DNA of 64,000 nucleotides from a virus (IMGVR_UViG_3300028361_000018); one strand, 5' to 3'; positions 47,475-63,827 are shown, numbered from the stretch's first letter. Notes: generated from the letters alone by a model not told the origin. Translations and numbers: made by a program.

Positions 47475-47743
47475 ACCATTAGCAGGTTAAAAAGTCTGCA
47501 AAGAGATAAATAAACGTATAACAAAGGAACTAACGCTTTTAATGAAACTTACTACACTGCTGTCATCACTAACAACTACTTGGAATAATTCGAGTAATAG
47601 TGTTATGGTGGGTTTGGTGTAGAGCGAAAGAACAGTTCGACACTTTACAAGCCCACTGCACACGCACTGGGCTTTTTTTGTGTAAGAAATTTGTAGCATT
47701 ACTAGTATTGAAAATAACAACTATCAATTCTGAGCTGATAAAT

Positions 47744-48451
47744 ATGAAATGTGTACACTGTGGAAAGAAATTTAAAGATGATAGCAAAGAGTCTGCTCAT
47801 GCTAGACTATGTAAAATGAACTTGGACAAACATAGTGATCCGCTGAGCAAGCATCATACTCCGTCGGGGTTTTCTGACCGCGTGGCCTTTCGCTTAACCA
47901 GGCTGTTGCGGTTTTTTGCAGACCTATTTTTTGCCAAACGCTATGGCCATCGTGCGGTAGTATTGGAAACCGTAGCCGCAGTACCGGGAATGGTCGGAGG
48001 AATGCTGGGGCACATGCGCTCCCTCCGTCGGATGGAGGACAATCGGGAATGGATTCACACGCTGCTGGAAGAGGCTGAAAACGAGCGCATGCACCTGATG
48101 ACGTTTGTGCAAATTGCTCAGCCCAGCTTTCTGGAACGGGTGTTGATTTTGTTGGCGCAGGGAATTTTCTTCACCAGCTTTCTGTTTCTCTATGTTGTTT
48201 CGGGCCGCACCGCACATCGGCTAGTGGGTTATTTTGAAGAAGAGGCGGTTTACAGCTATAGCGAATACCTGGCTGAGGTGGACAGCGGCCGTTTGGAAAA
48301 CGTGGCCGCGCCGCAGATTGCAATTGACTATTGGAAATTGCCCGTCGATGCGACTTTGCGCGATGTCATTATAGTGGTCAGAATGGACGAAGTGGGTCAT
48401 CGAGACACCAATCACCGCTTTGCAGATAGTTTAATTAATTTTAAAAAGTAG
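47744..48451 (+). CDS. plastoquinol terminal oxidase / alternative oxidase (PTOX)
   Basis: Track ORF 47600-48451. ATG at 47744. LETVAAVPGMV, NERMHLM, FEEEAV.SY..Y, DE..HRD are the diiron AOX/PTOX ligand motifs. Region is visibly more GC-rich than its surroundings. Confidence 0.85.
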   Translation: MKCVHCGKKFKDDSKESAHARLCKMNLDKHSDPLSKHHTPSGFSDRVAFRLTRLLRFFADLFFAKRYGHRAVVLETVAAVPGMVGGMLGHMRSLRRMEDNREWIHTLLEEAENERMHLMTFVQIAQPSFLERVLILLAQGIFFTSFLFLYVVSGRTAHRLVGYFEEEAVYSYSEYLAEVDSGRLENVAAPQIAIDYWKLPVDATLRDVIIVVRMDEVGHRDTNHRFADSLINFKK

Positions 48452-48480
48452 TTGACAGGCAAGTGCACAGGCCATATACT
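48452..48480 (+). promoter_or_regulatory. sigma70-like promoter TTGACA-N17-TATACT driving the tRNA cluster
   Basis: TTGACA 48452-48457, TATACT 48475-48480. Followed by a conserved 45-nt leader that is also found at 58368. Confidence 0.5.
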
Positions 48481-48547
48481 TAGTGCATAGGTTAGCAAAA
48501 CAGCTAACACGCTCTTTAACAATAGAAAGTAAAAACAAAAGTTTATC

Positions 48548-48633
48548 GGAAGGTGCCGCTAATTGGATGGCAACTGGATTTGAACTCCAGGGTATTTGCA
48601 AAACAGGTAGGGGTTCGATTCCTCCACCTTCCT
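48548..48633 (+). tRNA. tRNA-Ser (anticodon UGA), type II
   Basis: Acceptor GGAAGGT/ACCTTCC. Anticodon arm CTGGA-TTTGAAC-TCCAG. Long variable arm. T-arm GGGG-TTCGATT-CCTC. CCA not encoded (ends TCA). Confidence 0.65.
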
Positions 48634-48844
48634 CAAACTTTAAAGTAAAACACACTAAGACGTGGATGTCACTCCAGACGTGGGGAAGACAGGTTCGAGA
48701 CCTGTAATGGTAAATCCTGGTTTCGAAACCAGGTAGTGTGTTTTACTTTAAAGTTTATAGTAAAGCATACTAAGGCATGACAGACACTTTTAACGTGTTT
48801 GACTAGGTCCTACACCCAATAGTATGCTTTACTATAAAGTTTAT

Positions 48845-48935
48845 AGTAGATTGGCTGAGTGATCTAAGGCGTTCCGCTGCTAACGGAAAAGTTCACATTG
48901 TGGGCTCGAAGGTTTGAATCCTTCATCTACTGCCA
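48845..48935 (+). tRNA. tRNA-Ser (anticodon GCU), type II
   Basis: Acceptor AGTAGAT/ATCTACT + G + CCA. Anticodon arm TTCCG-CTGCTAA-CGGAA. Long variable arm. T-arm GAAGG-TTTGAAT-CCTTC. Confidence 0.7.
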
Positions 48936-49149
48936 TTTAGGAGGACAACCCCCGGGCTCTCCGCTATTTTAATGTAAATCAAGGAAATATAATGTATCCA
49001 TATCCAGGATTTTACGTAATGAGAACGAACTGCGGAAAGTGATGTCTAGGACAATAATAGACCGTGGAGCAGCAGAAAGTTGGAAAAGTTTTTGTGAAGA
49101 CTCAGAATCCAAACAAGAGTTTTTTATTGTAGAAATAAAGTAAAAGTTT

Positions 49150-49917
49150 ATGCCTCAGGTACAGGGTACGGATTGGTCTCCAAAACCAGTAAGCGGGGTT
49201 CGCAAAATGATAAATAGTCGTATGAACTATAACAAACATTATGCGACATTGATTGAACGAGCAAAAACACGAGTATTTGACGGTTACACTGAGAAACATC
49301 ATATTGTTCCTAGATGCTTAGGCGGCACAGATGACAGAGAGAATATAGTAGCATTAACTCCTGAAGAGCACTATGTAGCACATCAGTTACTAGTTAAGAT
49401 GCACCCAAAGGAACATAAGTTGGTATACGCTGCTAATATGATGACTGTTAGTAGTAGAAAGAATTTGCGTAGTAATAAACAGTACGGATGGATAAAGAAA
49501 CGTTACATTAGCGAGTGTAGAAAACGAAAAGGAAGTGAAAACTCGTCGTACGGGAAGCCCTGGTATTATAATCCTGAGACTTTAGAAAACGGGAAGTTTC
49601 TTAAAGAAAATGTTCCAATAGGCTGGATTAAAGGGAGAAAATCAACACAGAAGCATTGTACTGGTTGTCTGGTTAAAATTACTTCACAGCATGCAAAATA
49701 TTGTCAAGGATGCCTTACTAAATTACAGCTAAGTCGTGTAACAAAAAACGAATTAGAATTTTTGAAAAGAAAAGACAAGTTTATTAGCCTAATAGAAGAA
49801 GGTTATGCCTTCTCGACAGCACTCGACAAAATGGGATATGGCAATTCATATTCGTTAAAGTCCGGGGTAGGCAAGTGGGCTAAAGAAGTTTTATATGCGT
49901 CGGGTACTGGGTACTGA
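49150..49917 (+). CDS. HNH homing endonuclease
   Basis: 255 aa. TEKHHIVPRCLGGTDDRENIVALTPEEHYVAHQLL HNH core. Flanked by ~30-bp imperfect direct repeats (49160-49192 and 49900-49932). Confidence 0.65.
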   Translation: MPQVQGTDWSPKPVSGVRKMINSRMNYNKHYATLIERAKTRVFDGYTEKHHIVPRCLGGTDDRENIVALTPEEHYVAHQLLVKMHPKEHKLVYAANMMTVSSRKNLRSNKQYGWIKKRYISECRKRKGSENSSYGKPWYYNPETLENGKFLKENVPIGWIKGRKSTQKHCTGCLVKITSQHAKYCQGCLTKLQLSRVTKNELEFLKRKDKFISLIEEGYAFSTALDKMGYGNSYSLKSGVGKWAKEVLYASGTGY

Positions 49918-49983
49918 TTGGTCTCCAAAACCGATCTTGTGAGGATCGTAACCTCGTCGACGCGCCAATTTAGAGGAAGTGTT

Positions 49984-50157
49984 ATGATAGCGTGTGTATG
50001 CAGAAACATTAAAGACAGCAGCTACGACACGCTAGAGGCTCTTAAACTGCGTATTATGCAGGATGACGCTGTATGCGGTAAGTGTCAAGTTTATTATAAA
50101 CGAACAGAAAGAGCAGTAAATAGTACAGCCAACTACGGGGTGTCTAGATTAGGCTAG
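49984..50157 (+). CDS. small Cys-containing hypothetical (57 aa)
   Basis: Track ORF 49918-50157. ATG at 49984. Confidence 0.3.
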   Translation: MIACVCRNIKDSSYDTLEALKLRIMQDDAVCGKCQVYYKRTERAVNSTANYGVSRLG

Positions 50158-50227
50158 CATAGTGAGGACCTAGTCCAATAACTGAGCAGGGCGGTGCTGC
50201 TACACTCCACATATTGTAAATGAGGAG

Positions 50228-50256
50228 TTGACAGATAGTAAATACATTGCTATTGT
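50228..50256 (+). promoter_or_regulatory. sigma70-like promoter TTGACA-N17-TATTGT
   Basis: TTGACA 50228-50233, TATTGT 50251-50256. Confidence 0.4.
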
Positions 50257-50282
50257 AGTTAAACATTAAAGTAAAGAGGATA

Positions 50283-50750
50283 ATGAACATGAAGGTCAAA
50301 CTGTTAGCAGGCGTACTTGCAATTGCTCTATCTGCTCCTTTAGTTGCAGGACAGCGAGTTAACGCACAAGTAGTTCATCACTACCGAGATGTAGCAGTAC
50401 AGACACCTCATGTGAGCCAGCAGTGTGGTGTCGAACAGGTTCCGGTCTACGGTACAGTTCGACAGCAGGGCAGCACATCAGACACTCTGATAGGTGCAGT
50501 AATAGGTGCAGCAGTAGGAAGGCAGTTTGGCGGAGGAAGTGGACGTGATGCAGCCACTGCGGCAGGTGCATTGATTGGTGGCGCTAGAGGACACTCAGGT
50601 TCTACCTCCACAGTAGTAGTAGGCTATAGACAGGAGCAACGTTGTTTTAACAGTACCACGTACTCTACGTCGTATCAGCAGCAATATGATTACAGTATTG
50701 TGAAATTTGTTGAGAACGGACGAGAAGTAACTTTACAGTATCAGAAATAA
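50283..50750 (+). CDS. secreted glycine-zipper protein (17-kDa-antigen/Slp-like)
   Basis: 155 aa. Signal peptide MNMKVKLLAGVLAIALSAPLVAG. GAVIGAAVGRQFGGGSGRDAATAAGALIGGARG glycine-zipper segment. Confidence 0.45.
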   Translation: MNMKVKLLAGVLAIALSAPLVAGQRVNAQVVHHYRDVAVQTPHVSQQCGVEQVPVYGTVRQQGSTSDTLIGAVIGAAVGRQFGGGSGRDAATAAGALIGGARGHSGSTSTVVVGYRQEQRCFNSTTYSTSYQQQYDYSIVKFVENGREVTLQYQK

Positions 50751-50816
50751 GGGATTGACAAACACAACACAGATGTTATTATAGTTATACATTAAAGCAA
50801 GATAAGTGTTATTTGC

Positions 50817-50889
50817 TCCTAAGTAGCTCAGTTGGTAGAGCGTCGGTCTGTTAAACCGAATGTCGCTGGATCGTGCCCGGCCTTAGGAG
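50817..50889 (+). tRNA. tRNA-Asn (anticodon GUU)
   Basis: Acceptor TCCTAAG/CTTAGGA, discriminator G (as in E. coli tRNA-Asn, which starts UCCUCUG). D-arm GCTC-AGTTGGTA-GAGC. Anticodon arm TCGGT-CTGTTAA-ACCGA. CCA not encoded. Confidence 0.7.
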
Positions 50890-50912
50890 CAAATAACATT
50901 TTTAGAATTTAT

Positions 50913-50995
50913 TCCTCGGTAGACAAAATGGTAAAGTCGCCGGACTGTTAATCCGGTTCCGCAAGGAGCTGTAGGTTCGAAGCCTACCCGGGGAG
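50913..50995 (+). tRNA. type II tRNA with apparent anticodon GUU (Tyr-like body; isotype uncertain)
   Basis: Acceptor TCCTCGG/CCGGGGA. Anticodon arm CCGGA-CTGTTAA-TCCGG. 14-nt variable arm TTCCGCAAGGAGCT. T-arm GTAGG-TTCGAAG-CCTAC. The loop differs from E. coli tRNA-Tyr (CUGUAAA) by one base. Confidence 0.5.
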
Positions 50996-51030
50996 CATTT
51001 GAGTCTTAACTTAGTGTTAAGACTCGAACT

Positions 51031-51684
51031 TTGTATAAATACAGTATGAACTATACTATATACAAAGTTACAAATAAGATGAACGGCAAGATCTATATCG
51101 GATCTCATAAGACCCCTAATCTTAATGACGGCTATATGGGCTCAGGTAAGTATTTGAAGCGAGCATTAGAAAAACACGGAATTGATAATTTTGTGAAAGA
51201 AATATTGTTTATTTTTGATACTCCTGAGCTAATGTACGCAAAAGAAGCAGAATTAGTAAATGAAGAATTTTTGACAGAAGCTAACACTTATAATTTAAAA
51301 GTAGGTGGATTTGGTGGATGGGACTATGTTAACAAAAACAATTCTTCGCATTCAAAAGAACATATGAATAAAATGTGTAAAGCTAGAATATCAAAGTATC
51401 CAAACGGTACTTTTTACGGCAGAAGTCATACAGAAGAGACCAACAAACGCATTAGCACTTCCTTAGCAGCATTGGCCCTTAGAACTTTTTTAGGAAAAAA
51501 ACATACTGACGCAACTAAACAACTAATTAGTGAAAAGGCTAAAATTCATAGTAAAGGAAAACGAAATTCGCAGTTTGGTACGATGTGGATTACAAACGAA
51601 GTAGAATCAAAGAAGATTAAGAAGACTGAACTTATACCAGAAGGGTACAGAAGAGGCCGAGTAGTAAACAAGACGTTACAGTAA
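51031..51684 (+). CDS. GIY-YIG homing endonuclease (Seg/I-TevI-like)
   Basis: 217 aa. YTIYKVTNKMNGKIYIGSHKT...YMGSG...NLKVGGFGG GIY-YIG core with a C-terminal NUMOD-like basic region. Paralogous to the 54414 and 55360 ORFs. Confidence 0.7.
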   Translation: MYKYSMNYTIYKVTNKMNGKIYIGSHKTPNLNDGYMGSGKYLKRALEKHGIDNFVKEILFIFDTPELMYAKEAELVNEEFLTEANTYNLKVGGFGGWDYVNKNNSSHSKEHMNKMCKARISKYPNGTFYGRSHTEETNKRISTSLAALALRTFLGKKHTDATKQLISEKAKIHSKGKRNSQFGTMWITNEVESKKIKKTELIPEGYRRGRVVNKTLQ

Positions 51685-51893
51685 AACATTTAGGACATAG
51701 GTTCACAACAGACGTAGAGGAACAAGTTTGAGTCCTATAATGGTAGATCCTGGTCCGTCCTCGGTCGCCAGCACGTTCCACCAATTTATGCAGGGTAAGT
51801 CCAGTGCTTTCTGGTATGAATCCATAAGAGGTGTTAGGGGTTATCCACAGCATCCACCAGGGGTTAGAATCCCCAACCCTGCTCCATTTTTAT

Positions 51894-51969
51894 TGCCTCG
51901 TAGCTCAATTGGCAGAGCGCCTGACTTTGACTCAGGAGGTTGTAGGATCATACCCTACCGGGGCTGCCA
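51894..51969 (+). tRNA. tRNA-Gln (anticodon UUG)
   Basis: Acceptor TGCCTCG/CGGGGCT with U1 (as in E. coli tRNA-Gln) and discriminator G + CCA. Anticodon arm CCTGA-CTTTGAC-TCAGG. T-arm GTAGG-ATCATAC-CCTAC. Confidence 0.65.
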
Positions 51970-51978
51970 AACAAACAG

Positions 51979-52006
51979 TTGACAAAACTGTAAAAGACTG
52001 TATACT
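51979..52006 (+). promoter_or_regulatory. sigma70-like promoter TTGACA-N16-TATACT
   Basis: TTGACA 51979-51984, TATACT 52001-52006. Confidence 0.4.
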
Positions 52007-52037
52007 GTGTATAACAGTTAGATAAAAGGTAAGCGGT

Positions 52038-52490
52038 ATGATAGTACAAGTTCCAGGACATCGCTCCTACAAGTGGTTTTTAAAAGAAGAGAACAACAGT
52101 TGTGCTATGATAAACTTTGCTTACACTACCAACTTTCCGTTGGTTACACAAGTAATTGATCGAGAGTACGAAGAACGAGTTAGGACTAGAGGAAACAATG
52201 CATCGTATCATTGGCCTGAGGTCATACGCACGTTGCCAAAACCTAACAATTCAGTACCTGCGTTTGAAAGTTCGCCGCACGTTTGGCACTTTAAGGACAC
52301 TGAAACTGATATAGAATTTTTATTGCTTAGTGACGGACTTCGCAAGAATCATTACAAAGGCTCAAAGATTGAAGTAATGTGCGACACACACAGGCATCAT
52401 AAACAGGACGCAATGTTAGCAGCAGCGTACAGCAGATTGTTAGAATTTGTTGAACAGTGCCATAACAATGCGCAACAGAATAACTCCTAG
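52038..52490 (+). CDS. hypothetical protein (150 aa)
   Basis: ORF track. Confidence 0.4.
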   Translation: MIVQVPGHRSYKWFLKEENNSCAMINFAYTTNFPLVTQVIDREYEERVRTRGNNASYHWPEVIRTLPKPNNSVPAFESSPHVWHFKDTETDIEFLLLSDGLRKNHYKGSKIEVMCDTHRHHKQDAMLAAAYSRLLEFVEQCHNNAQQNNS

Positions 52491-52533
52491 TCGATTAGTG
52501 GCTAAATCACTTGGCTTATTTTTAAAACTATAC

Positions 52534-52609
52534 GCTCTTATCGTCTAAAGGTTAGGACACTGGACTTTCACTCCAGTAATGTTGGGTTCGAGTCCCACTA
52601 AGAGCACCA
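52534..52609 (+). tRNA. tRNA-Glu (anticodon UUC)
   Basis: Acceptor GCTCTTA/TAAGAGC + A + CCA. Anticodon arm CTGGA-CTTTCAC-TCCAG. T-arm TTGGG-TTCGAGT-CCCAC. Confidence 0.7.
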
Positions 52610-52611
52610 AC

Positions 52612-53469
52612 TTAATCGTATAGAACTTTATAGTCGGTAACAAAATAGAAATCAGTAACATAATCAAATACAAATTTTAGATCCTTTTTATACAGTATAT
52701 CAATAGGTTCCGACACTGACTGTAATTTTAAGTCAACAACATGGGTGTAATAACCTTTGATCTCAACAAGACGCCCGTTGACACGAAAATCTGGATAATA
52801 CTTTCTGTGCTTACCGTTGTAATAATATTTCCAAGATTCTTTATTACGTTCAATGCAGATTTGGTGATCAACACAAAAAATATAGTAACACAGTTCGTAT
52901 GTAGATGCTAAATAAAAACCTTTATAATATCCACCTTTACTATTTCCGGATCCTTTACGTTCGCCACCAGAATACGGTATAAAGCAGCTAAATGAACAGT
53001 ATTTTTTACTTTCTTCACAAGGATAGGCATAAAATTTATTTTGGCAAGTTTCAGAAGAGCAAGTTTTATACGTTCCTTTACGTTGAAAAGTCGGCCTATT
53101 AGTAACAAATCCGGAAGGATTATTTTTAGCATACAACGAAAGTTTCTTCTTGGTGCTCTCCTTTACTTTCCGTTTAGTATTTGTAAATGTCGTTGAACAA
53201 GATTTTGAACAAAAAGTGCTGTGCCGTTTTTCAAATGGAAGAGCTAGGGTGCACGACTTACAAAACTTATCAGCTGTTTCCTTAAACTGATTAATTGTGT
53301 TTTGTTTTAGTTTACTTGAAATTTGTGGAGCCACAAATTTCATTCGCTGCTGATGTGCAACTCTTTGAGCAGCATCATGAGAAAGTCGATGATGTCCAGC
53401 TATGCCTTTGGCGGATAACTGTTTGCCGCATATGATACAAGAACATATAGGTGATTTATAAATATGCAA
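52612..53469 (-). CDS. Cys-rich putative endonuclease (PD-(D/E)XK-like core; possible homing endonuclease)
   Basis: 285 aa, the only convincing minus-strand gene in the tRNA island. N-terminal CxxC...HH zinc-finger-like segments. C-terminal YYPDFRVNGRLVEIKG resembles a PD...E.K nuclease motif. Confidence 0.45.
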   Translation of the reverse strand: MHIYKSPICSCIICGKQLSAKGIAGHHRLSHDAAQRVAHQQRMKFVAPQISSKLKQNTINQFKETADKFCKSCTLALPFEKRHSTFCSKSCSTTFTNTKRKVKESTKKKLSLYAKNNPSGFVTNRPTFQRKGTYKTCSSETCQNKFYAYPCEESKKYCSFSCFIPYSGGERKGSGNSKGGYYKGFYLASTYELCYYIFCVDHQICIERNKESWKYYYNGKHRKYYPDFRVNGRLVEIKGYYTHVVDLKLQSVSEPIDILYKKDLKFVFDYVTDFYFVTDYKVLYD

Positions 53470-53574
53470 GTTAGTAACTCCGTTTTTATCTAATAGTGCG
53501 GTTAATTCACAATGTATTTATGTAAAGTCACCCAAGAGCAAGGGGATCGATACCCCTCTAGGAGACCATTTTAT

Positions 53575-53650
53575 AGTACCATAGTATAGCGGCTCTGTAC
53601 ACTCGGCTGATAACCGAGAGGTCCTGGATCGACACCAGGTGGTACTACCA
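53575..53650 (+). tRNA. tRNA-Ile (anticodon GAU)
   Basis: Acceptor AGTACCA/TGGTACT + A + CCA. Anticodon arm CTCGG-CTGATAA-CCGAG. T-arm CCTGG-ATCGACA-CCAGG. Confidence 0.7.
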
Positions 53651-53747
53651 AGCAATGGGGTGTTAGCTAACGACCAATGCGCTCGGTATAATTTCAGAGC
53701 CGAGAACGGGTAACTACGCAGTCCCGTACATTCCACCAAACAAGTAG

Positions 53748-53775
53748 TTGACACAGCGCTTATTGATGCTATACT
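53748..53775 (+). promoter_or_regulatory. sigma70-like promoter TTGACA-N16-TATACT
   Basis: TTGACA 53748-53753, TATACT 53770-53775. Confidence 0.4.
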
Positions 53776-53818
53776 TTGTACATAGTAAACAAACACACGT
53801 TAATAAAGAGTAAGAAAC

Positions 53819-54097
53819 ATGGTACGCTTACCAGAACAGTATATCGCAACCAAGCATAGAGGCTACTTTTTCAACACTGAGAACGAGACACTGTACTCGA
53901 TCAAGATAGACGGCATACTAAAGCCTATGAAGTTGCTACGGCCTAATCATTTTAACTACATGAAAGAACCGTTCTTTCGTATTAGTGTCAAAGGAATACG
54001 AAAGTGTTATCCGTTAACAAGTTTGAAAGAGTTAGCAGAGAAAGAAAAAGCGAATCCCAGGATTGATGTTATTCCTGAGATGGCAACAACATTTTAA
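53819..54097 (+). CDS. hypothetical protein (92 aa)
   Basis: ORF track. Confidence 0.35.
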   Translation: MVRLPEQYIATKHRGYFFNTENETLYSIKIDGILKPMKLLRPNHFNYMKEPFFRISVKGIRKCYPLTSLKELAEKEKANPRIDVIPEMATTF

Positions 54098-54289
54098 AGT
54101 TTAATGCGCCTGTATACCCTCGGTCTACGAAATCGTTGAAAGGTTAGCAGGATACAGGTAGGTTCGAATCTCGCCATTTTAAATGGCAGATCAGCACCCT
54201 TTTAAGGTGAAGACAGGGTATCGATACCCCTATGTGATACCAAACATAACGCAGACGATAAGTTGTAAGCCGTGTGAATAAAGATTTAT

Positions 54290-54365
54290 CTCTCTGTAGT
54301 GTAGTCTAGTAACACCCTACGTTTGAGACGTAGAATCTGGGGTTCAAAATCTCACAGAGAGACCA
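54290..54365 (+). tRNA. type I tRNA with apparent anticodon UGA (Ser-reading anticodon on a short-variable-arm body; isotype uncertain)
   Basis: Acceptor CTCTCTG/CAGAGAG + A + CCA. D-arm GTGT-AGTCTAGTA-ACAC. Anticodon arm CTACG-TTTGAGA-CGTAG. T-arm TGGGG-TTCAAAA-TCTCA (two G-U pairs). Confidence 0.5.
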
Positions 54366-54413
54366 GTTTTAGGAATAGTTCAATAAATATCGAACTTGTA
54401 TAAATAGTAGTAT

Positions 54414-55064
54414 ATGCTATACACACTATACAAGATAACGAATATTATTAACAATAAGATATACGTAGGAGTCCATAAGACTCACGATATCAATGATGAC
54501 TATATGGGATCAGGTAAGATCCTAAAGCTATCAATAAAGAAAAATGGAATTGAAAACTTCACTAAAGAAATATTAGAAGTTTACGACAACCCAGAAGATA
54601 TGTTCTCTGCTGAAGCAAAGATAGTTAACGAAGAATTTATTAAAGATAAAGATAACTATAATTTGAAAGAAGGTGGTCAAGGTGGGTTTGATTGGATTAA
54701 CGAAAATGTTGATCGTAGTCTTGTAGACTATAAACCGCATATTGGTTCAAAAGTTTTTGTTGATAAATGGAAAAATGATCCTGTCTTCCGCGCAGCGCAA
54801 CTGTCACGTATGAAGGAGTTCAGTAGACTTGGAGTGGAAGCTCATAAGCTATTATACCCAGAAGGAGTATGGAAAGGGAAATTCCATAATGAAGAATCAA
54901 AAAAGAAAATAGGTAAAGCAAATAGTATTCACCAAACTGGTAAAGGTAATTCTCAGTTTGGTACAAGATGGATTCATAATTTAGAATTAAAGAAATCTAA
55001 AAAAGTTAATAAAGAAGAACCTCTACCTGAAGGATGGTTAGAAGGTAGAAAAATAAAGTTTTAG
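54414..55064 (+). CDS. GIY-YIG homing endonuclease
   Basis: 216 aa. LYTLYKITNIINNKIYVGVHKT...YMGSG...NLKEGGQGG. Paralog of the 51031 ORF. Confidence 0.7.
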   Translation: MLYTLYKITNIINNKIYVGVHKTHDINDDYMGSGKILKLSIKKNGIENFTKEILEVYDNPEDMFSAEAKIVNEEFIKDKDNYNLKEGGQGGFDWINENVDRSLVDYKPHIGSKVFVDKWKNDPVFRAAQLSRMKEFSRLGVEAHKLLYPEGVWKGKFHNEESKKKIGKANSIHQTGKGNSQFGTRWIHNLELKKSKKVNKEEPLPEGWLEGRKIKF

Positions 55065-55125
55065 GGGGATCTGTATGGGACAGACCTTGCAATGCGAGAG
55101 AAAGAGATCGTTACTCTTATCCTCT

Positions 55126-55337
55126 ACCCGAGGAGCAAAACGACATAGTTGATTTGCCCGTGCATTGTGCCAGTGAACTATAATGCGAACTTAGCTCCTA
55201 TCGAGAGCGCCAAATTTATTAGCTTGGCTAGTAACAGAAAGAATGCTTAATCGGGGCTGCGAACCTTTACTCTGCCCGAGGAGCGGAACGACATAGTTCA
55301 TCCGCCCATGCGTTGTGCTAATAACCTATTATGCGGA
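55126..55337. repeat. two ~70-bp imperfect direct repeats
   Basis: CTCTACCCGAGGAGCAAAACGACATAGTTGATTTGCCCGTGCATTGTGCC... (55126-55195) and CTCTGCCCGAGGAGCGGAACGACATAGTTCATCCGCCCATGCGTTGTGCT... (55268-55337). Confidence 0.6.
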
Positions 55338-55359
55338 CATGGTGTGAAGGGTAACACGA

Positions 55360-56016
55360 GTGTCTTCATTGCTAAATAATTGTATGAAACATTATACAGT
55401 ATACAAGACAACAAATATAATTAACAGAAAATATTACATCGGTACACACGTTACTAATAACCCAACTGATTCATATTTAGGTTCAGGAACACGCTTAGCT
55501 AAATCTATCAAAAAGTACGGAAAAGAGAGCTTTTATAAAGAAATTCTGTTCGACTGCACTAGTGAAGAAGAAATGTTTAGAAAAGAAAACGAGCTAGTTA
55601 ATGAAACGGTCTTGAAAGACAAGCAGTGCCTTAACTTAATTGTTGGTGGGAAAGGTGGATTTTCCTACATTAATAAAAGCGGTATAGCTAAATTTAAAGG
55701 AAGGAAACATACGCAAGCGTCTATTAAGAAGATGCTAGCAACAAAAAGAGATAACGGAACTTGGTGTCCAACAGACGAGTGCCGAGAAGAAAGAGCCGAA
55801 GCAAATCGTATAAGAGCAAAAAACCCTGCTAGAAACGCAGCAATATCTAAGACAGTGTCGGGAAGAATAAAAACCGAAGAACATAAAAAAAAGATTGCCG
55901 AAAGTCTGAGAGGCAAGAAACAGAACAGAGTACAATGTCCTTACTGTAAAAGAGTAGGCGGCGAACAAGCATTTAAGCGTTATCATTTCGATAACTGTAA
56001 AAATTTGCGGATCTAG
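55360..56016 (+). CDS. GIY-YIG homing endonuclease
   Basis: 218 aa. YTVYKTTNIINRKYYIGTHVT...YLGSG...NLIVGGKGG. C-terminal basic/Cys region. Its stop overlaps the 5' end of tRNA-Gly. Confidence 0.7.
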   Translation: MSSLLNNCMKHYTVYKTTNIINRKYYIGTHVTNNPTDSYLGSGTRLAKSIKKYGKESFYKEILFDCTSEEEMFRKENELVNETVLKDKQCLNLIVGGKGGFSYINKSGIAKFKGRKHTQASIKKMLATKRDNGTWCPTDECREERAEANRIRAKNPARNAAISKTVSGRIKTEEHKKKIAESLRGKKQNRVQCPYCKRVGGEQAFKRYHFDNCKNLRI

Positions 56017-56082
56017 CTCAATTGGTAGAGCACTGTCCTTCCAAGTCAGATGTTAGGGGTTCAAGTCCCCTGATCCGCTCCA
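56007..56082 (+). tRNA. tRNA-Gly (anticodon UCC)
   Basis: Acceptor GCGGATC/GATCCGC + T + CCA. D-arm GCTC-AATTGGTA-GAGC. Anticodon arm CTGTC-CTTCCAA-GTCAG (one T-T mismatch). T-arm AGGGG-TTCAAGT-CCCCT. Confidence 0.65.
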
Positions 56083-56096
56083 AATAAGAGGTAATT

Positions 56097-56366
56097 ATGA
56101 AGTCAATACCAATGAACGTCAAGCAAGGCGACCGCGTAAAAGCACGATTTAACCCTTACACTGATGAGAATAGTAATGACTGGAGCCCGTCTCTATCAGG
56201 AGATATAGAACAAGTTGAGTACAACGCTAAAAACGAAGTTGTAGCTATTGTAGTTGATTCTTGCAGGTACTCTGCCGAGCATTACCAAAGGTCCGCTGGA
56301 CAACAGAATGAAATTCATTATTTTGATGTTGGTCATGGGTTAGTTTTTGAATTTACAGTAGTATGA
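56097..56366 (+). CDS. hypothetical protein (89 aa)
   Basis: ORF track. Confidence 0.35.
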   Translation: MKSIPMNVKQGDRVKARFNPYTDENSNDWSPSLSGDIEQVEYNAKNEVVAIVVDSCRYSAEHYQRSAGQQNEIHYFDVGHGLVFEFTVV

Positions 56367-56410
56367 GCGGTTCGAATCCCTGTGTCCGCACCAAACAAAA
56401 GGAAAACGTA

Positions 56411-56626
56411 ATGAGCACGATTAAAGATATGGTAATTGACAGAAAGCAAGTTCAGTTTAAGTTTTACCGCAAGGGCGAACTCTTTTACGAAACTGAATGC
56501 GGCTTTATTTTTCCAGTGCCAATCTCCGACACTGGCGACGGACAGTTTAACCGTTCGGATAAGGCAATGATGTTCATGCGTTACATCCGCAAAGAACTAG
56601 CAGTACGAGAACAAGCTGTAAGCTAA
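56411..56626 (+). CDS. hypothetical protein (71 aa)
   Basis: Track ORF 56363-56626. ATG at 56411 with AAGGAAAACG RBS. The upstream in-frame part overlaps a tRNA 3'-fragment-like sequence. Confidence 0.35.
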   Translation: MSTIKDMVIDRKQVQFKFYRKGELFYETECGFIFPVPISDTGDGQFNRSDKAMMFMRYIRKELAVREQAVS

Positions 56627-56671
56627 TACATTACCCTCTGTAGCTCGGTGGATAGAGCTACATAATTATTT

Positions 56672-56746
56672 GGCCCTATGGTGAAATGGATATCATAAGA
56701 GTCTTCGAAACTCCTGTTCCTTGTTCGAATCAAGGTAGGGTCGCCA
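56672..56746 (+). tRNA. tRNA-Arg (anticodon UCG)
   Basis: Acceptor GGCCCTA/TAGGGTC (one G-U) + G + CCA. Anticodon arm AGAGT-CTTCGAA-ACTCC. T-arm CCTTG-TTCGAAT-CAAGG. Confidence 0.55.
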
Positions 56747-56815
56747 ATATTCTTTGTTTGTAGCACTCTACAAATATACAGATAAGTACACGGTTAATCC
56801 AAACTAAGGAACCGT

Positions 56816-57748
56816 ATGAACAATTACCAAAGTAATACCGCTTGGACAACACAACACCAAAATGTGTATGAAACTAACGCAATTAAACTATTACAATTCT
56901 CACAAGGTACAGGCACGCCGGCTGTAATTATTCCACCACAAGCAGGCCATCACAGCAACATAGCAGATTATGCACCTAACCAAAGTTTAGTACAAAGTGC
57001 TGCTAAAAACTACACAGGCAGTGTCTACACAATAGAGTGGAAGAGCTGTACATATACTCGCCGCAACGAAGGCATAGAGGACTTGCTATCACAGCTTAAT
57101 CAATGTGTATCGCACGTCGGCGGAACAGCAACATTAGTAGGGTTGTGTCAAGGCGGCTGGCTAGCCACAATCTACGCAGCATTACATCCAAATCAAGTAT
57201 CGTCTCTAGTAATAGCAGGAGCTCCTATTGATACTAAAGTAGGTAACAGTGTAATACATCGCGCTACGAAGACGCCTTTAGTCTTATATAAAGCTATTGT
57301 AATGATGAGCGGAGGTCTTATGCTAGGCCAAACTATGTTAGCAGCTTGGAAGAGCAGCAATCTAAGTAAACACTATTTTGAACGATATGTCTATCCAGAC
57401 GACGATGCTCGACGCTTTTACAAGTGGTACGATCATACACAGGATCTAGCAGGTAAATGGTACCTATGGGCTGTAGAACAGTTGTTTAAGAAGAACTTAC
57501 TAGGTAAGAACGAACTCACAATAGCCGGTGTCAAAGTGGACCTTACTGTGCTAAACAGCTTAAAAGGTGTACACATTGTTACAGGAGTGCGTGACGACAT
57601 TACGCCAAGTGAACAATCTCTTGCTCTGCAACGCTACACCCGCGCACAAACCTACTTAGTTGACGCAGGGCACATAGGAGTGTTCATGAGCCACCGAGGA
57701 ATATGTGACGTTTGGAATGGCTTGTTCGCTAGGTTGGATGCAGCTTAG
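56816..57748 (+). CDS. alpha/beta-hydrolase-fold protein with GxCxGG box (PHA synthase / depolymerase-like)
   Basis: 310 aa. VGLCQGGWLATIYAALHP nucleophile-elbow with Cys in place of Ser, as in PhaC-type enzymes. Later conserved D and H candidates (GVRDDI, DAGHIGVF). Confidence 0.45.
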   Translation: MNNYQSNTAWTTQHQNVYETNAIKLLQFSQGTGTPAVIIPPQAGHHSNIADYAPNQSLVQSAAKNYTGSVYTIEWKSCTYTRRNEGIEDLLSQLNQCVSHVGGTATLVGLCQGGWLATIYAALHPNQVSSLVIAGAPIDTKVGNSVIHRATKTPLVLYKAIVMMSGGLMLGQTMLAAWKSSNLSKHYFERYVYPDDDARRFYKWYDHTQDLAGKWYLWAVEQLFKKNLLGKNELTIAGVKVDLTVLNSLKGVHIVTGVRDDITPSEQSLALQRYTRAQTYLVDAGHIGVFMSHRGICDVWNGLFARLDAA

Positions 57749-57758
57749 TAAATACTAG

Positions 57759-57787
57759 TTGACAGAATATCTAATCTCTCTTATACT
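57759..57787 (+). promoter_or_regulatory. sigma70-like promoter TTGACA-N17-TATACT
   Basis: TTGACA 57759-57764, TATACT 57782-57787. Confidence 0.45.
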
Positions 57788-57846
57788 GTTAGAACATTAG
57801 AAATACGCAGAGTATCTAAGATTGAAAGCAAAGTTTGGAGAGTAAA

Positions 57847-58335
57847 ATGTTATTTGATGATGTAGTTGGCAAGACTTTTAAGTTCTATGGTGTTCACGAT
57901 ACGTTCTTTAAGATTGGTCAACACATCTTTGAGGCTATAGAGGATGAAGACGACGGATATCGTAGCTACTTAGATTCTGTAGAAACTCGCAAGGACGAAA
58001 AGCTAGTGTTCTTAGGTCGCAGCTTTGCAACTGTAACAGTAGAAGAAAAGTGCAATGGATGCTTTGACGGCTACGTATTGCGAGACACTACAGATGATCA
58101 TATTTGGTTAAAGTTTGGCACTGAAAACACCGACGACTATTATCCGTATTTTGTATTTGAGTATCAAACCAAGCTAGAAGTAGCTGAACGTGTAGAACGC
58201 AAGGCTGCTAGAGAAGATGCCGAGCACACACGAGGCCTAGTCAGTCAACAACTGGCATTAGTGGACCGAGCACTAAAGGGCGGACAATTAGATGTAGCAC
58301 AAGAACTTCTGAACGACTTAGCAAATAAAATGTAA
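57847..58335 (+). CDS. hypothetical protein
   Basis: Track ORF 57835-58335. ATG 57847 preceded by GGAG. Confidence 0.4.
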   Translation: MLFDDVVGKTFKFYGVHDTFFKIGQHIFEAIEDEDDGYRSYLDSVETRKDEKLVFLGRSFATVTVEEKCNGCFDGYVLRDTTDDHIWLKFGTENTDDYYPYFVFEYQTKLEVAERVERKAAREDAEHTRGLVSQQLALVDRALKGGQLDVAQELLNDLANKM

Positions 58336-58342
58336 ACAGTGG

Positions 58343-58371
58343 TTGACAGCAACAACGTTAGACACTATAAT
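58343..58371 (+). promoter_or_regulatory. sigma70-like promoter TTGACA-N17-TATAAT followed by a conserved 45-nt leader
   Basis: TTGACA 58343-58348, TATAAT 58366-58371. The downstream TTAGTACATAGGTTAGCAAAACGTTAACACGTTCTTTAACAATAG matches 48479-48526. Confidence 0.5.
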
Positions 58372-58667
58372 TAGTACATAGGTTAGCAAAACGTTAACAC
58401 GTTCTTTAACAATAGTAACTGGGCAGTATAATGTCCTTAGACTAAGCATAGCAATATGCCAGAATTGGTAAGATACCGTTAGTTAAGTTAGACAACCAAA
58501 CGGTGTACCCATATTAAGAACCTTGTCTAATACACGAAAGCTGAAATGCGCCGGATTGCTTTGACTACGTACTAAAATGTAGTAGCACTAGATGGTAAAA
58601 GTGTAGGTGACTTGGCAGTGGAATAGTAACTGTCTAGCTAATTTTGTAAATAATTAATAGGTGACGT

Positions 58668-58880
58668 ATGTTAGTAGTAGCATTACATGAGTACGGCGAC
58701 TTTGATATGCCAATACTGAATTCAGTTTGGACTTCTTCAGAATTTGACAGCTTAACACAAACAGGGCTTTCATCAGACACCTTTGATTACTCAGATATCA
58801 ACAATGCCATTAAGCAGCTTAGAAAGCTAGGCTTTAAAAATACTAAAATTGCTATTGTCACAGTAGGCGGAGGATTCTAA
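58668..58880 (+). CDS. hypothetical protein (70 aa)
   Basis: ORF track. Confidence 0.35.
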   Translation: MLVVALHEYGDFDMPILNSVWTSSEFDSLTQTGLSSDTFDYSDINNAIKQLRKLGFKNTKIAIVTVGGGF

Positions 58881-58882
58881 CT

Positions 58883-59158
58883 ATGCACACAGAAATTACC
58901 ACATACGCAAGCGAACAAGAAATACTCGAATTAATCAACAGCTACTTTAATCTCGACGAGGATTCGTTGGTTGCTCTCGAAGAACTAGGTAACCAAGACT
59001 GGTGCATAACTGTTGAACCAGCTGACAAATACGACATGGACGCTTTATTAGAGGTCAAAAACGGTAACGCTCAATTTAGTACCAACGCGATGCTAAATCA
59101 GCTTTGCAGCTCAGGGGTACTGTTGTCGGGTAAATACGTTATAGACTGTACTTGGTAA
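58883..59158 (+). CDS. hypothetical protein (91 aa)
   Basis: ORF track. Confidence 0.35.
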   Translation: MHTEITTYASEQEILELINSYFNLDEDSLVALEELGNQDWCITVEPADKYDMDALLEVKNGNAQFSTNAMLNQLCSSGVLLSGKYVIDCTW

Positions 59159-59173
59159 TATTTGGAGAACAAC

Positions 59174-59488
59174 ATGAAAAAACTAATTCAAGCAGCACTA
59201 ATTACAGTAATGTTCGCAGGCTCATCTGCTGCGCTAGCATCAAAAGTAGTAACTGTGCCCACTAAGATGGTGTGTACTGTATACTTAGAAATTGAACAGC
59301 ACCTGCGGGATAAGGGACAATCGCCTATCCTTGAGGGTAATTCCAGCATGGCTGATCGAGCAGGAACTACATCTCTGTTCTACATGGATAATGACGGCAA
59401 TTATACATTGGTAATTCGAAGTGATGTTAACTCCCTTGGCTGTATCATTGACTTTGGAAAAATGTCAAAATACGGCATGGAAAGCTAA
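59174..59488 (+). CDS. secreted hypothetical protein
   Basis: Track ORF 59162-59488. ATG 59174. Signal peptide MKKLIQAALITVMFAGSSAALA. Confidence 0.4.
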   Translation: MKKLIQAALITVMFAGSSAALASKVVTVPTKMVCTVYLEIEQHLRDKGQSPILEGNSSMADRAGTTSLFYMDNDGNYTLVIRSDVNSLGCIIDFGKMSKYGMES

Positions 59489-59511
59489 TCTAAATATACG
59501 AGTAGGTTGTT

Positions 59512-59805
59512 ATGACTGACAAATACACGCTGCCTGTGATGTACGATAAGATTTCGTCTAGAGACAAGCGAGTAGTTCGAGAACAGTATATTAAACAGCA
59601 GGGCGGTGCCTGTATGTTTTGCGAACGACAGCTGACCGAAGAGCCGCCTAAGTCAGTAACTTCTAAGAAAGTAAACTGGAAACTGTTCCCGCCATTCTTC
59701 CTAAAACATCCAATTCACTTACAACACTGTCATGACTCAGGGCTAACAGAAGGTGCAGTACACGCACTCTGCAATGCTGTGATGTGGCAATTTCACGGTC
59801 GCTAA
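59512..59805 (+). CDS. hypothetical protein (97 aa), Cys/His-rich
   Basis: ORF track. CMFCERQ ... HCHDSG ... HALCNAVMWQFHG. Confidence 0.35.
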   Translation: MTDKYTLPVMYDKISSRDKRVVREQYIKQQGGACMFCERQLTEEPPKSVTSKKVNWKLFPPFFLKHPIHLQHCHDSGLTEGAVHALCNAVMWQFHGR

Positions 59806-59829
59806 CCAAACTAACAAGGAGTAAATTTT

Positions 59830-60726
59830 ATGGGATGCTGGAATAAAACATGTTCATTGACAAACCTTCCAATCTACCACGGCGACGCAGTGTACGTCTT
59901 TGCATTAGAGAAGAAGGCAACATACGATCAGTGCTATGCTACAGGGCACTATGCACCGGTTCTGATACCGTTCGAAGGTGTTTATAATGACTACGGCGGA
60001 AGCGATGAGAATAGCGGAGTGGGGCTAACGTATGTGCTAGGCGCAGTTAGGGAAAACTTAATAGAAATGGAAATAGAAGTGGGAGAGAACCAGCGCCACG
60101 ACGTTGCTGTTACTCGCAGCTCTTTTGGAGAGGAACAGTTTTTTGAAAGTGTTCGCGAACAGCGTTTAATTATTGAAAATAAGTTTGGCAAAGAGTCCTA
60201 TATTGACTTTGCAATGATGCGCAAAGACTGCGTGGACGCAATTCTTAATAAGTGGCAAATTGAAGACTGCAAATATAACCATGAGTCTAATGAGGTAAAC
60301 TACTTTAAATACGGTTACAATGACCTTGTTGAGGAAGCAACTGATTACATCCTGGCAATAAAAGACCTTGTTGAAAAGAATGACGAAATAGGATTCATGC
60401 TTATAAACAACATGGCCGAATACCCAGTGTGCAGCAAGCTGGCGAAGACGCTAAACTTTAACGAGCACCGATTTAGTGGAATGTTACGAGGCCAAGGAAT
60501 TGTTCGTGCACTAGTTGAAGCAGGTGAGATCGAACAAGCAGAAGCGTTCATCAAAGAATACCTCAAAGGAGCTATGCTTAACCTATTCTTTGATGAAACG
60601 CGCAAGCAATGGCTACCCGGAGGACACGAAGGTAGCCAAGGACAAGAATACGAGCCTTACGAATTGCTACTACAAGTGACTCAAGAAACTATCAACAAAA
60701 GAAAGACAGAAATGGAAGAATGGTAG
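59830..60726 (+). CDS. hypothetical protein (298 aa)
   Basis: ORF track. Confidence 0.4.
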   Translation: MGCWNKTCSLTNLPIYHGDAVYVFALEKKATYDQCYATGHYAPVLIPFEGVYNDYGGSDENSGVGLTYVLGAVRENLIEMEIEVGENQRHDVAVTRSSFGEEQFFESVREQRLIIENKFGKESYIDFAMMRKDCVDAILNKWQIEDCKYNHESNEVNYFKYGYNDLVEEATDYILAIKDLVEKNDEIGFMLINNMAEYPVCSKLAKTLNFNEHRFSGMLRGQGIVRALVEAGEIEQAEAFIKEYLKGAMLNLFFDETRKQWLPGGHEGSQGQEYEPYELLLQVTQETINKRKTEMEEW

Positions 60727-60754
60727 TTGACAAACACTACAAAGGTGCTATACT
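60726..60754 (+). promoter_or_regulatory. sigma70-like promoter TTGACA-N17-TATACT driving an ORF-free structured region
   Basis: TTGACA 60726-60731, TATACT 60749-60754. Confidence 0.45.
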
Positions 60755-60770
60755 AATAAAGTAAAGATTT

Positions 60771-61428
60771 ACACTGTGCTGGAATAGGTATACAGGGGTG
60801 CGGAATAAGCCAATATGGATAGGCGGTGAAATATTAATAATACACCGTTTTGCGCTCAAGACTTGTATAACTGAGTCAGGCGAGAACTACCCGTTTCATA
60901 ACAGCGCAACGTAATTGAAACATCCGGGTTCGATCCCCGGCAGTGTAAATAAATAATTCGGTCTGCTCATTACAATTAAAATGAGCACACGGTACTCTTA
61001 GCGCAAGCTAAGGGGCGCAGTATAACTAAACAGTAGAGCATACTGTGAAGAATCCTTATTCGGGCGAAGAAGCGACGGCTTCTAGGATCGGAGGTACACA
61101 AGTTGAACGCCAAGTGTTACGTAGTGATCTTTGGTATTGCTTGAACGCCACAGCTGGGACCTGCTAGGCAACCGAACTAGCTACTGCGTTAATGTCCTTT
61201 GCCTACGGGTAGAGGACATCTTAAAGCACTTTGACACAGAGTGCTTTAAGATGTGACAGATGCGTAGACTGATACGCAGTGCTTGAGCTTAGCGGCCAAG
61301 CATGAGACGAGGCGCTGACCCTGGGCAGATTTGAACAAACAGGGGAACCGATATTGGTCGCGAACTGTGTCGGGTTGCTATGCTGGAGATCAGTACCAGT
61401 TGTCACACTACTAATTCACGAGGTTAAT
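60771..61428 (+). ncRNA. large structured non-coding region (tRNA-like 3' module + multiple long hairpins); identity unknown
   Basis: No ORF >61 aa on either strand for ~650 nt, downstream of a promoter. TACACTG (60771) pairs with CAGTGTA just after a canonical T-arm CCGGG-TTCGATC-CCCGG (~60925-60946). Further perfect hairpins include ACATCTTAAAGCACT-TTGACACAG-AGTGCTTTAAGATGT (~61218-61256). Confidence 0.4.
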
Positions 61429-61782
61429 ATGATAACTAATTACTTGTTTCTAAATCGTGAGCTGCTTGATGATGTTTATTCCGCTCATGGGTCAACCCTT
61501 GTTGTTGTACAAAATCGAGGAGATGCTGTAAACTTCTTTAATGAATTGCTGATGTGCCATAAAATGGACACCGAGTCAGCTATGTGCTCTCACTCTGGGT
61601 TGTGGATATCATGCAAGGTCAGCAAGACCACAGTAAGGTCGATACGTGATCAATCATTTCGTTCGTCAATTCGCGGAGCTCAGTTCACACAGGTATTTAC
61701 AGTGGGCAAAATGTACGAAGAAGACAACGAACTAATAGTAGCTAGTCTTCTGTGGCAGCCAAGGCAATCGCCAGAAGAATAG
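61429..61782 (+). CDS. hypothetical protein
   Basis: Track ORF 61354-61782. ATG 61429 after GAGGT RBS. Confidence 0.35.
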   Translation: MITNYLFLNRELLDDVYSAHGSTLVVVQNRGDAVNFFNELLMCHKMDTESAMCSHSGLWISCKVSKTTVRSIRDQSFRSSIRGAQFTQVFTVGKMYEEDNELIVASLLWQPRQSPEE

Positions 61783-61786
61783 AGGT

Positions 61787-61814
61787 TGACACAGACAGTA
61801 AACATAAGTATACT
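61787..61814 (+). promoter_or_regulatory. sigma70-like promoter TTGACA-N16-TATACT
   Basis: TTGACA 61787-61792, TATACT 61809-61814. Confidence 0.4.
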
Positions 61815-61841
61815 GTGTACTGAGATAAGGGAGTAAGACAA

Positions 61842-62030
61842 ATGAGATTTATTGCAAGATCTAAGTCCGACCCAAATATCAGCAACGGCGGAATGGAATA
61901 TGATTCGGAGTCATCTGCACAATTACATGCAGACACAATGAACAAGTTAATTGAACGCTATCCGGATAAGCCATGGAACACAGACTTTTGGAAGACTAAA
62001 CCAGAGGCTTGGGTAGTTTACAAAAAGTAA
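61842..62030 (+). CDS. hypothetical protein (62 aa)
   Basis: ORF track. Confidence 0.35.
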   Translation: MRFIARSKSDPNISNGGMEYDSESSAQLHADTMNKLIERYPDKPWNTDFWKTKPEAWVVYKK

Positions 62031-62033
62031 TAT

Positions 62034-62107
62034 GGCGGGTTGGCCGAGCGACTAGGCAGTGGACTGCAACTCTACGCACACAGGTTTGAATCCTGTACCC
62101 GCTTCCA
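62034..62107 (+). tRNA. tRNA-Cys (anticodon GCA)
   Basis: Acceptor GGCGGGT/ACCCGCT (G1-U72) + T + CCA. Anticodon arm GTGGA-CTGCAAC-TCTAC. T-arm ACAGG-TTTGAAT-CCTGT. Confidence 0.6.
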
Positions 62108-62838: not shown

Positions 62839-62839
62839 C

Positions 62840-63403: not shown

Positions 63404-63478
63404 TTAGCAGTAATATTTGACTTTTTCTATACACAGTGTTATTATTAATAAAATGCAAAACACACAAAGGTAAAGGTT

Positions 63479-63796: not shown

Positions 63797-63827
63797 CTTA
63801 AAAATTCAACCAGCACAAGGACTAGTA

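Follow-up and report, generated by a model that had tools for sequence, protein, structure and literature searches.

Two copies of a short leader, each directly behind a strong promoter in a 64,000-nucleotide stretch of phage DNA (IMGVR_UViG_3300028361_000018; hereafter the window), are probably rrn-type processive antitermination leaders, each with a predicted loading site for Nus factors (NusB/NusE). The identity of the boxA element, the architecture of the leader, its conservation, the non-coding character of its cargo, and its wide recurrence in phage contigs are established at the level of sequence; by analogy with known boxA systems, we infer from these that both promoters are transcribed, that Nus factors bind the leader, and that the resulting transcription is resistant to Rho. 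In the preliminary description of this DNA, the repeat was regarded as a shared RNA leader, i.e., an sRNA, an attenuator, or an RNase processing signal. A selected, promoter-proximal RNA leader is indeed what the present analysis indicates, but none of the three proposed functions fits best, and antitermination of the boxA type fits better.

The window comes from a large uncultured phage with approximately 41% G+C and is an early-type region that runs in one direction. Its genes comprise nrdA and nrdB, those for homing endonucleases and an AOX, 12 tRNAs, and a permuted tmRNA. The nearest protein matches are weak (nrdA, 57% to phiKZ-like phages; a 298-aa ORF, 37% to Synechococcus phage B23), and megablast and blastn searches with both leader regions gave no counterpart among GenBank phages. 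A homing-endonuclease-type gene with NUMOD3 lies between nrdA and nrdB (7571-8626). The permuted two-piece tmRNA (14317-14683; Rfam RF04321, 87.8 bits) has no consensus promoter or boxA directly upstream, and a similar tmRNA occurs in an unrelated tRNA-rich contig (L138). Five paralogous genes of 396-587 aa (9789-11207 and 23529-29594) contain many internal 78-nt (26-aa) repeats with WPxGE..AI motifs. At 30052-30449, a consensus-like promoter is followed by approximately 370 nt without an ORF that are GC-rich and self-complementary in appearance.

Architecture of the leader

Both copies lie on the + strand, each behind its own promoter, where the preliminary description had placed them. The sigma-70-type promoter of copy 1 (TTGACA-N17-TATACT, 48452-48480) has its -35 box, TTGACA, at 48452-48457 and its -10 box, TATACT, at 48475-48480, and agrees with the consensus at 11 of 12 positions. 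That of copy 2 (TTGACA-N17-TATAAT, 58343-58371; -35 box at 58343-58348 and -10 box, TATAAT, at 58366-58371) agrees at all 12, and the N17-spaced TATA(C/A)T promoters described earlier are thereby confirmed for both copies. Exact matches to TTGACA-N16-18-TATAMT number 14 in the window, where 0.05 would be expected, and all of them are on the + strand; a slightly looser pattern gives 19 sites, two of which carry the leader block.

The shared block begins at the last base of the -10 box in each case and covers 48480-48525 in copy 1 and 58371-58415 in copy 2 of the 64-kb window. A global alignment of the two copies has 42 identical columns out of 46, so the earlier figure of 45 of ~47 shared nucleotides was slightly too high; the copies differ by three substitutions (48485, G/A; 48504, C/T; 48512, C/T) and a 1-nt indel (A at 48502). 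Upstream, the two promoter spacers of 17 nt show no relationship, and downstream the identity is gone a few bases past ...AACAATAG. Since identity collapses on both flanks, the repeat is a bounded block and not a piece of a longer duplication. With up to 3 mismatches, its 22-nt 3' half has two sites in the window, where 0.01 would be expected, and none of 100 shuffles reached two. In an Rfam scan, as suggested previously, of the whole window at the gathering threshold and of both copies at E values up to 10, neither the leader nor the ORF-free stretch behind copy 2 was covered by any family.

The block opens with the initial transcribed segment TAGTGCATAG (48481-48490, + strand), in which transcription of copy 1 would start; it precedes the hairpin, is the same in both copies save for the G/A at 48485, and is conserved in all relatives. 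The boxB-like hairpin of copy 1 (GTTAGC-AAAACA-GCTAAC, 48491-48508, + strand) has a 6-bp stem in which 48491-48496 pairs with 48503-48508, with a folding energy of -7.4 kcal/mol (z = -6.4; matched by none of 200 shuffles). The corresponding hairpin of copy 2 (GTTAGC-AAAAC-GTTAAC, 58382-58398, + strand) also has 6 bp, including one G-U pair, between 58382-58387 and 58393-58398 (-4.7 kcal/mol, z = -3.8). Folding therefore upholds the hairpin reported for each copy. On the other hand, the compensatory change claimed for the stem amounts to a one-sided change from G-C to G-U together with a 1-nt loop deletion. No double compensatory change occurs in the phage lineage, where only GCUAAC versus GUUAAC and one loop base vary, and because this variation is one-sided, the phage's own family provides no covariation support for the stem. 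The type-2 leaders of relatives (see below) carry GCTAAC, which gives a full Watson-Crick stem.

Each hairpin ends 2 nt before the boxA, a predicted NusB/NusE site, which reads GCTCTTTAACAA at 48511-48522 in copy 1 and GTTCTTTAACAA at 58401-58412 in copy 2 (both on the + strand) and is an exact consensus match in both. The boxA starts 30 nt after the -10 box in copy 1 and 29 nt after it in copy 2. Both copies match GYTCTTTAANA, the boxA consensus derived for gamma-proteobacteria (Baniulyte et al. 2017, PMC5725501), the clade to which the host of this phage probably belongs, and the sole difference between the two boxA sequences falls on the degenerate Y position. The exact 12-mer GYTCTTTAACAA was found only at 48511 and 58401 in the 64 kb, and no boxA-like site with up to two mismatches elsewhere in the window was near a promoter. 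This 12-mer, which is unpaired, is the most conserved part of the leader. A GU-rich boxC 3' of the boxA is absent within approximately 40 nt downstream in both copies; boxC is dispensable for rrn antitermination, and its absence therefore does not exclude an rrn-type mechanism. Copy 2 has a weak 5-bp hairpin (58421-58436) located 8 nt 3' of the boxA, and copy 1 is without a convincing hairpin on that side.

Conservation in related phages

Further copies were sought in related phages, as had been proposed, and the leader recurs in one IMG/VR contig (L019) and 13 metagenome contigs, each of which has one of two leader types. The type-1 leader, which resembles copy 1, is identical at 45 of 46 positions in eight contigs (L142, L145, L149, L151, L152, L157, L158, and L161), in which 7 of the 17 positions of the promoter spacer match and the flanking DNA is 67-85% identical. 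It stands at the head of tRNA genes in every case, L161 having 23 tRNAs on that strand. The type-2 leader, which resembles copy 2, was found in L019/L163, L148, L156, L162, and L167. Each copy holds its own orthologous position in these diverged relatives, and the comparison shows the block to be under strong purifying selection. The 16-mer CATAGGTTAGCAAAAC had 20 matches in viral contigs, of which only L019 is a true relative, and the others are chance matches within genes.

The dissimilar flanks and the separate orthologous positions are not those of a simple recent duplication, which the preliminary description had named as the observation that would speak against a shared leader. A related view, that the block is a recently duplicated or mobile regulatory cassette with no function of its own at the RNA level, is extremely improbable. 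It draws on the resemblance of the window to the hyperplastic early region of T4-type phages, visible in its 19 promoters close to the consensus, its homing endonucleases, and the indels by which relatives differ; the PeSL cassettes of those phages likewise pair stem-loops with near-consensus early promoters that recur in a plastic early region. In PeSL cassettes, however, the stem-loop is a terminator that is followed by the promoter (PMC4122927), there is no boxA, and many copies are present per genome. In the window, the conserved part follows the -10 box, the block is found at only 2 of 19 promoters, the similarity ends at the block edges, and both copies are old and have been kept in place in diverged relatives.

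The AOX gene (AOX/PTOX family; 47600-48451) ends at the -35 box of copy 1. The protein is 87-90% identical to the AOX of Glaciecola sp., Brumicola pallidula, and other marine gamma-proteobacteria, and the gene is absent from the type-1 relatives; it is thus probably a recent host-derived auxiliary gene. This one acquired gene, the G+C content, and the cold-brine names of the contigs point to an Alteromonadaceae-like gamma-proteobacterium as the host, which would fall in the clade for which GYTCTTTAANA was derived, so that the consensus should be applicable here.

The tRNA array behind copy 1

Copy 1 was correctly described as heading the tRNA cluster. The first cargo gene, tRNA-Ser(UGA) (48548-48634, + strand; ARAGORN), begins 26 nt after the boxA, and a tRNA-Ser lies directly behind the leader also in the relatives L142, L145, and L152. 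ARAGORN identified 12 tRNAs in the window, up to 62107, and in the remaining array (48845-62107, + strand) the other 11 are scattered among small ORFs, additional promoters, and genes for homing endonucleases. Between the two tRNA-Ser genes lie two non-coding elements with strong structure (48636-48844, + strand; z = -5.3 and -7.1). These elements (48636-48748 and 48749-48844) have closing stems of 15-19 bp, are 85-93% identical in relatives, and match no Rfam family; possible roles are as substrates of RNase III or as stable RNAs of the kind found beside the T4 and T5 tRNAs. The first ORF behind copy 1 begins at 49150, which leaves approximately 670 nt untranslated. The cargo of the leader is thus untranslated RNA, consisting of tRNAs and structured RNAs up to the ORF at 49150 in the window and of GOLLD or 23 tRNAs in relatives.

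If the long helices at 48636-48844 are RNase III substrates, they would suit a leader that acts in processing or stability, with the hairpin as an RNase site or 5' stabilizer and the rest of the block incidental; a 5'-proximal hairpin can stabilize transcripts. Such a role, like that of an sRNA or attenuator, is nevertheless very unlikely. The most conserved part of the leader is the unpaired boxA 12-mer and not a helix, no terminator follows the leader, Rfam gives no match, and control motifs of the same composition are nearly absent behind phage promoters (see below). The three functions proposed originally were rejected individually: the sRNA, as there is no terminator and no discrete sRNA end; the attenuator, as there is no terminator/antiterminator alternative; and the RNase processing signal, as the conserved 3' half is single-stranded and contains an exact boxA and no processing helix. 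Terminator-like sites in the region number 11, about as many as the 12.1 expected by chance.

The boxA is not obligatory for transcription units of this array, since two consensus promoters within it are without one: the promoter at 50755 leads into a tRNA, and that at 60727 leads into an ORF-free stretch of approximately 600 nt. The latter (60755-61353; no + strand ORF longer than 41 aa) is a candidate non-coding RNA that is partly conserved in L019 (13853-14335), is 97.8% identical in L167, and has no Rfam match. The tRNA region of the window resembles that of T5. It includes an HNH gene after the second tRNA-Ser (49150-49917), a GIY-YIG/NUMOD3 gene (51031-51684), and, in the ORF-free gap at 55065-55359, a 69-nt direct repeat with 80% identity (55122-55190 and 55270-55338), the folds of which are not significant.

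The region behind copy 2 and the GOLLD RNA

Copy 2 is followed by approximately 250-255 nt free of ORFs, up to the ATG at 58668. The 250-nt ORF-free stretch noted behind this copy therefore stands as far as the lack of an ORF is concerned, and the stretch itself can now be identified as the flanks that appear to have been left by loss of a GOLLD core. Its first part (58413-58472, + strand) is a remnant of the 5' start of GOLLD, with 90% identity to L156 2619-2678 and 92% identity to L167rc 1-78; in L156 and L167, the counterpart of this segment continues into GOLLD. Its second part (58462-58643, + strand) corresponds to a conserved non-coding segment found immediately 3' of GOLLD in relatives (80% identical to L019 11755-11933 and 88% to L167rc from 945). 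The GOLLD core of 866 nt (L167rc 79-944) is missing from the window, with the deletion junction at a GGTAAG microhomology at about 58462-58477, and the GOLLD model (Rfam RF02032) has no match in the window at the gathering threshold or at E values up to 10. The same model finds GOLLD in L019 (10826-11760; 168.5 bits) and L167 (13900-14844, - strand; 160.7 bits). In L156 and L167, GOLLD starts approximately 25 nt after the boxA; in L019, an insert with a T5orf172-like homing-endonuclease ORF separates the leader from GOLLD.

L167 is 97.8% identical to the window over 59512-64000 and differs here by the 866-nt GOLLD segment. Two separate related lineages have GOLLD, and the simpler reading is therefore that it was deleted in the lineage of the window, a direction of change that we infer. 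L167 and the window thus form a natural near-identical pair of phages with and without GOLLD, and through the comparison the GOLLD RNA is tied to one particular promoter and leader. Folded in full, the predicted 290-nt transcript of copy 2 is no more stable than shuffled sequences (z = -0.75). An nhmmer search with the L019 GOLLD sequence against all loci retrieved gave only close relatives and matches to embedded tRNAs.

Promoter-boxA leaders in other viral contigs

IMG/VR was scanned with the pattern TTGACA-N16-18-TATAMT-N20-45-GYTCTTTAACAA, which was found in at least 117 viral contig stretches. The reversed boxA 12-mer gave one match in the same type of scan, and a boxA carrying C4T/T6C, the pair of changes by which SuhB association with the suhB boxA was abolished (PMC5725501), gave none. 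Judged by these matches, the module is common in uncultivated phages. They reduce to 77 distinct leaders, of which 71 could be assessed for cargo. The 16S start motif occurs in none of the loci among the matches listed, and the boxA loci are therefore not host rRNA operons.

The architecture seen in the window recurs in this set. Among the 77 distinct leaders of the matches listed, the median distance from the -10 box to the boxA is 29 nt, and the fold upstream of the boxA is stronger than expected (Mann-Whitney p = 2e-26): the 26 nt before the boxA have a mean folding energy of -5.29 kcal/mol in the matches listed, versus -1.69 for shuffles and -1.84 for the 26 nt after it. A subfamily of 12 leaders within the matches listed has a GNRA tetraloop on a 5-bp stem in which all cells are paired. 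Three of its five pairs are changed on both sides, and none of 500 shuffles attained its covariation score; as the subfamily was picked by its loop motif, only the outer three pairs are an unbiased test.

Hairpins of this kind raise the possibility of a lambda-like nut site, in which a phage-encoded N-like antiterminator would bind the hairpin and the conserved 5' segment TAGTRCATAGG and act with the boxA and the Nus factors, so that read-through would depend on a phage protein and not be constitutive. We regard this as unlikely, although several observations speak for it. In both paralogues and all relatives, the hairpin, including its loop, has changed far less than the promoter spacer, a pattern that suggests sequence-specific recognition; the covarying GNRA-loop hairpins that adjoin the boxA in many unrelated phage leaders recall lambda boxB; and copy 2 has the 5-bp hairpin 3' of its boxA. 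Lambda nutL and nutR are, moreover, phage-borne combinations of a boxA and a hairpin in an early leader, and give Nus-dependent processive antitermination. The shared hairpin of the present leader, however, is on the 5' side of the boxA, which is the rrn arrangement, and lambda has it on the 3' side; no hairpin of copy 1 at the lambda position is convincing, and the cargo is non-coding. The boxA of lambda nut is a weaker version of the rrn-type boxA, whereas the window has the full rrn-type 12-mer. No N-like or Nus-like domain was detected by Pfam in the ORFs at 58668-59805 behind copy 2, where small arginine-rich proteins would easily be missed.

As for what lies first behind the boxA in the 71 assessable leaders among the matches listed, a tRNA starts within 100 nt in 25 and precedes any ORF further out in 8; an ORF with a Shine-Dalgarno sequence is found within 60 nt in 15, and an ORF further out, or nothing, in the remaining 23. 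Approximately 46% of the distinct leaders in the matches listed thus run straight into tRNA genes. In the same contigs, again for the matches listed, a tRNA lies behind 32 of 87 promoters with a boxA and 21 of 123 without (p = 0.002). These counts and the control scans show that the module is specifically associated with phage promoters and tRNA arrays and that the association is widespread.

The 15 of 71 leaders (matches listed) with an ORF close by are those to which a repressive role of the suhB type could apply, in which bound Nus factors would block translation or promote Rho-dependent termination downstream. Repression that depends on boxA is documented for suhB, the 5' untranslated region of which has the same consensus outside rRNA operons (PMC5725501). 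At suhB, however, the boxA represses translation of an adjacent ORF, and the leader of the window has none: no start codon is near either copy, a tRNA follows after 26 nt or non-coding RNA of approximately 255 nt takes its place, and relatives have tRNAs or GOLLD at that position. For the window, repression is therefore highly improbable.

Several further loci have 400-900 nt without an ORF, tRNA, or Rfam match behind the promoter, hairpin, and boxA (L027, L113, L118/L136, L044, L123/L024, L081/L062/L094/L109, and L077/L092); several are conserved across contigs, and they are candidate phage non-coding RNAs. Rfam searches of 15 non-tRNA boxA loci gave no known family directly behind the boxA. 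BLAST searches with two tRNA-rich viral loci for cultured equivalents gave tRNA-level matches only, and in the tRNA regions of T4 and T5 no boxA was found near a promoter on the coding strand.

Comparison with known boxA leaders

The closest likeness is to the rrn operons of Escherichia coli. The boxA core of the rrnH leader is identical to that of copy 1, GCTCTTTAACAA, and the hairpin precedes the boxA in both. Downstream of P2, the rrnH leader reads ...GCGAC...GTCGCaacTGCTCTTTAACAATTTATCA and contains the 12-mer of copy 1; the E. coli boxA reference is TGCTCTTTAACAA, and both window copies conform to GYTCTTTAANA. As in E. coli rrn, the site of the window is a few tens of nucleotides downstream of a strong sigma-70 promoter, and the cargo is structured RNA that is not translated and gives rise to stable RNAs by processing. 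The E. coli site consists of boxB-boxA-boxC and is used by the rrnTAC complex with NusA/B/E/G, SuhB, and S4. In contrast to it, the window site is phage-encoded and known from its sequence, has no boxC and no second internal boxA, has a much shorter leader, and precedes tRNAs or GOLLD in place of 16S and 23S rRNA.

The boxA is also found ahead of CRISPR arrays, which are long and untranslated, and shields them from Rho (Stringer et al. 2020, PMC7665894). Both there and in the window, it stands ahead of a long array that is not translated and yields small RNAs by processing; the array of the window is composed of viral tRNA genes, however, and a conserved hairpin is part of the module. The role of boxA in rrn operons and CRISPR arrays is established (PMC4807359, PMC6614797, PMC7665894).

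Lytic phages with strong host-type early promoters ahead of a boxA include T7 and K1E. The unannotated early leader of T7 (L164) contains an exact GCTCTTTAACA (813-823) that lies 63 nt downstream of the A3 start, and the 15-mer ACGCTCTTTAACAAT is identical to copy 1 of the window; K1E (L165) has an exact boxA consensus at about 893-905, a place equivalent to that in T7. Unlike the boxA of the window, that of T7 precedes protein-coding early genes and has no tRNA or non-coding RNA cargo. To our knowledge, no function has been established for it.

Leaders with a boxA are thus already known from rrn operons, from the nut sites of lambdoid phages, from suhB, and from CRISPR arrays, and the T7 early leader offers an example at the level of sequence. 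Their occurrence with phage tRNA arrays and GOLLD appears to be undescribed: in the open-access literature, nothing was found that links boxA to phage tRNA genes, tRNA arrays, or GOLLD. The absence of the module from the T4 and T5 tRNA regions may be the reason.

Proposed mechanism and implications

Under the rrn-type reading, host RNA polymerase would start at a very strong sigma-70 promoter, and the first ~40 nt transcribed would contain the short boxB-like hairpin and then the single-stranded boxA. By analogy with rrn operons, the nascent boxA RNA would be bound by host NusB-NusE(S10), and NusA, NusG, and SuhB would join, which would render the elongating polymerase fast and Rho-resistant and would also aid folding of the RNA. 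The phage would set this leader where long untranslated transcripts start, i.e., at the head of the tRNA array and at the GOLLD promoter. Untranslated transcripts have no ribosomes to shield them against Rho, and it is this protection that the leader would supply. RNase P cleavage 26 nt after the boxA would detach the leader early, and we assume that the modified complex persists beyond that point. In the window, loss of the GOLLD core would have left the second leader ahead of the ~250-nt remnant and then small ORFs.

More broadly, and only tentatively, phages may routinely co-opt the antitermination and RNA-chaperone machinery of host rRNA synthesis, with the hairpin-boxA module as a "non-coding RNA promoter leader" of large lytic phages. 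The hairpin might then be read by a phage factor, and the modified polymerase would be needed for the co-transcriptional folding of giant RNAs such as GOLLD. If this is true, the combination of promoter, hairpin, and boxA could flag phage non-coding RNA genes that are as yet unknown. The module may be usable for annotating phage transcription units and for finding new phage non-coding RNAs. It also suggests, in concrete and testable form, how phages manage to transcribe giant non-coding RNAs and long untranslated tRNA arrays despite Rho, namely that they would have copied the solution that the host uses for its rRNA.
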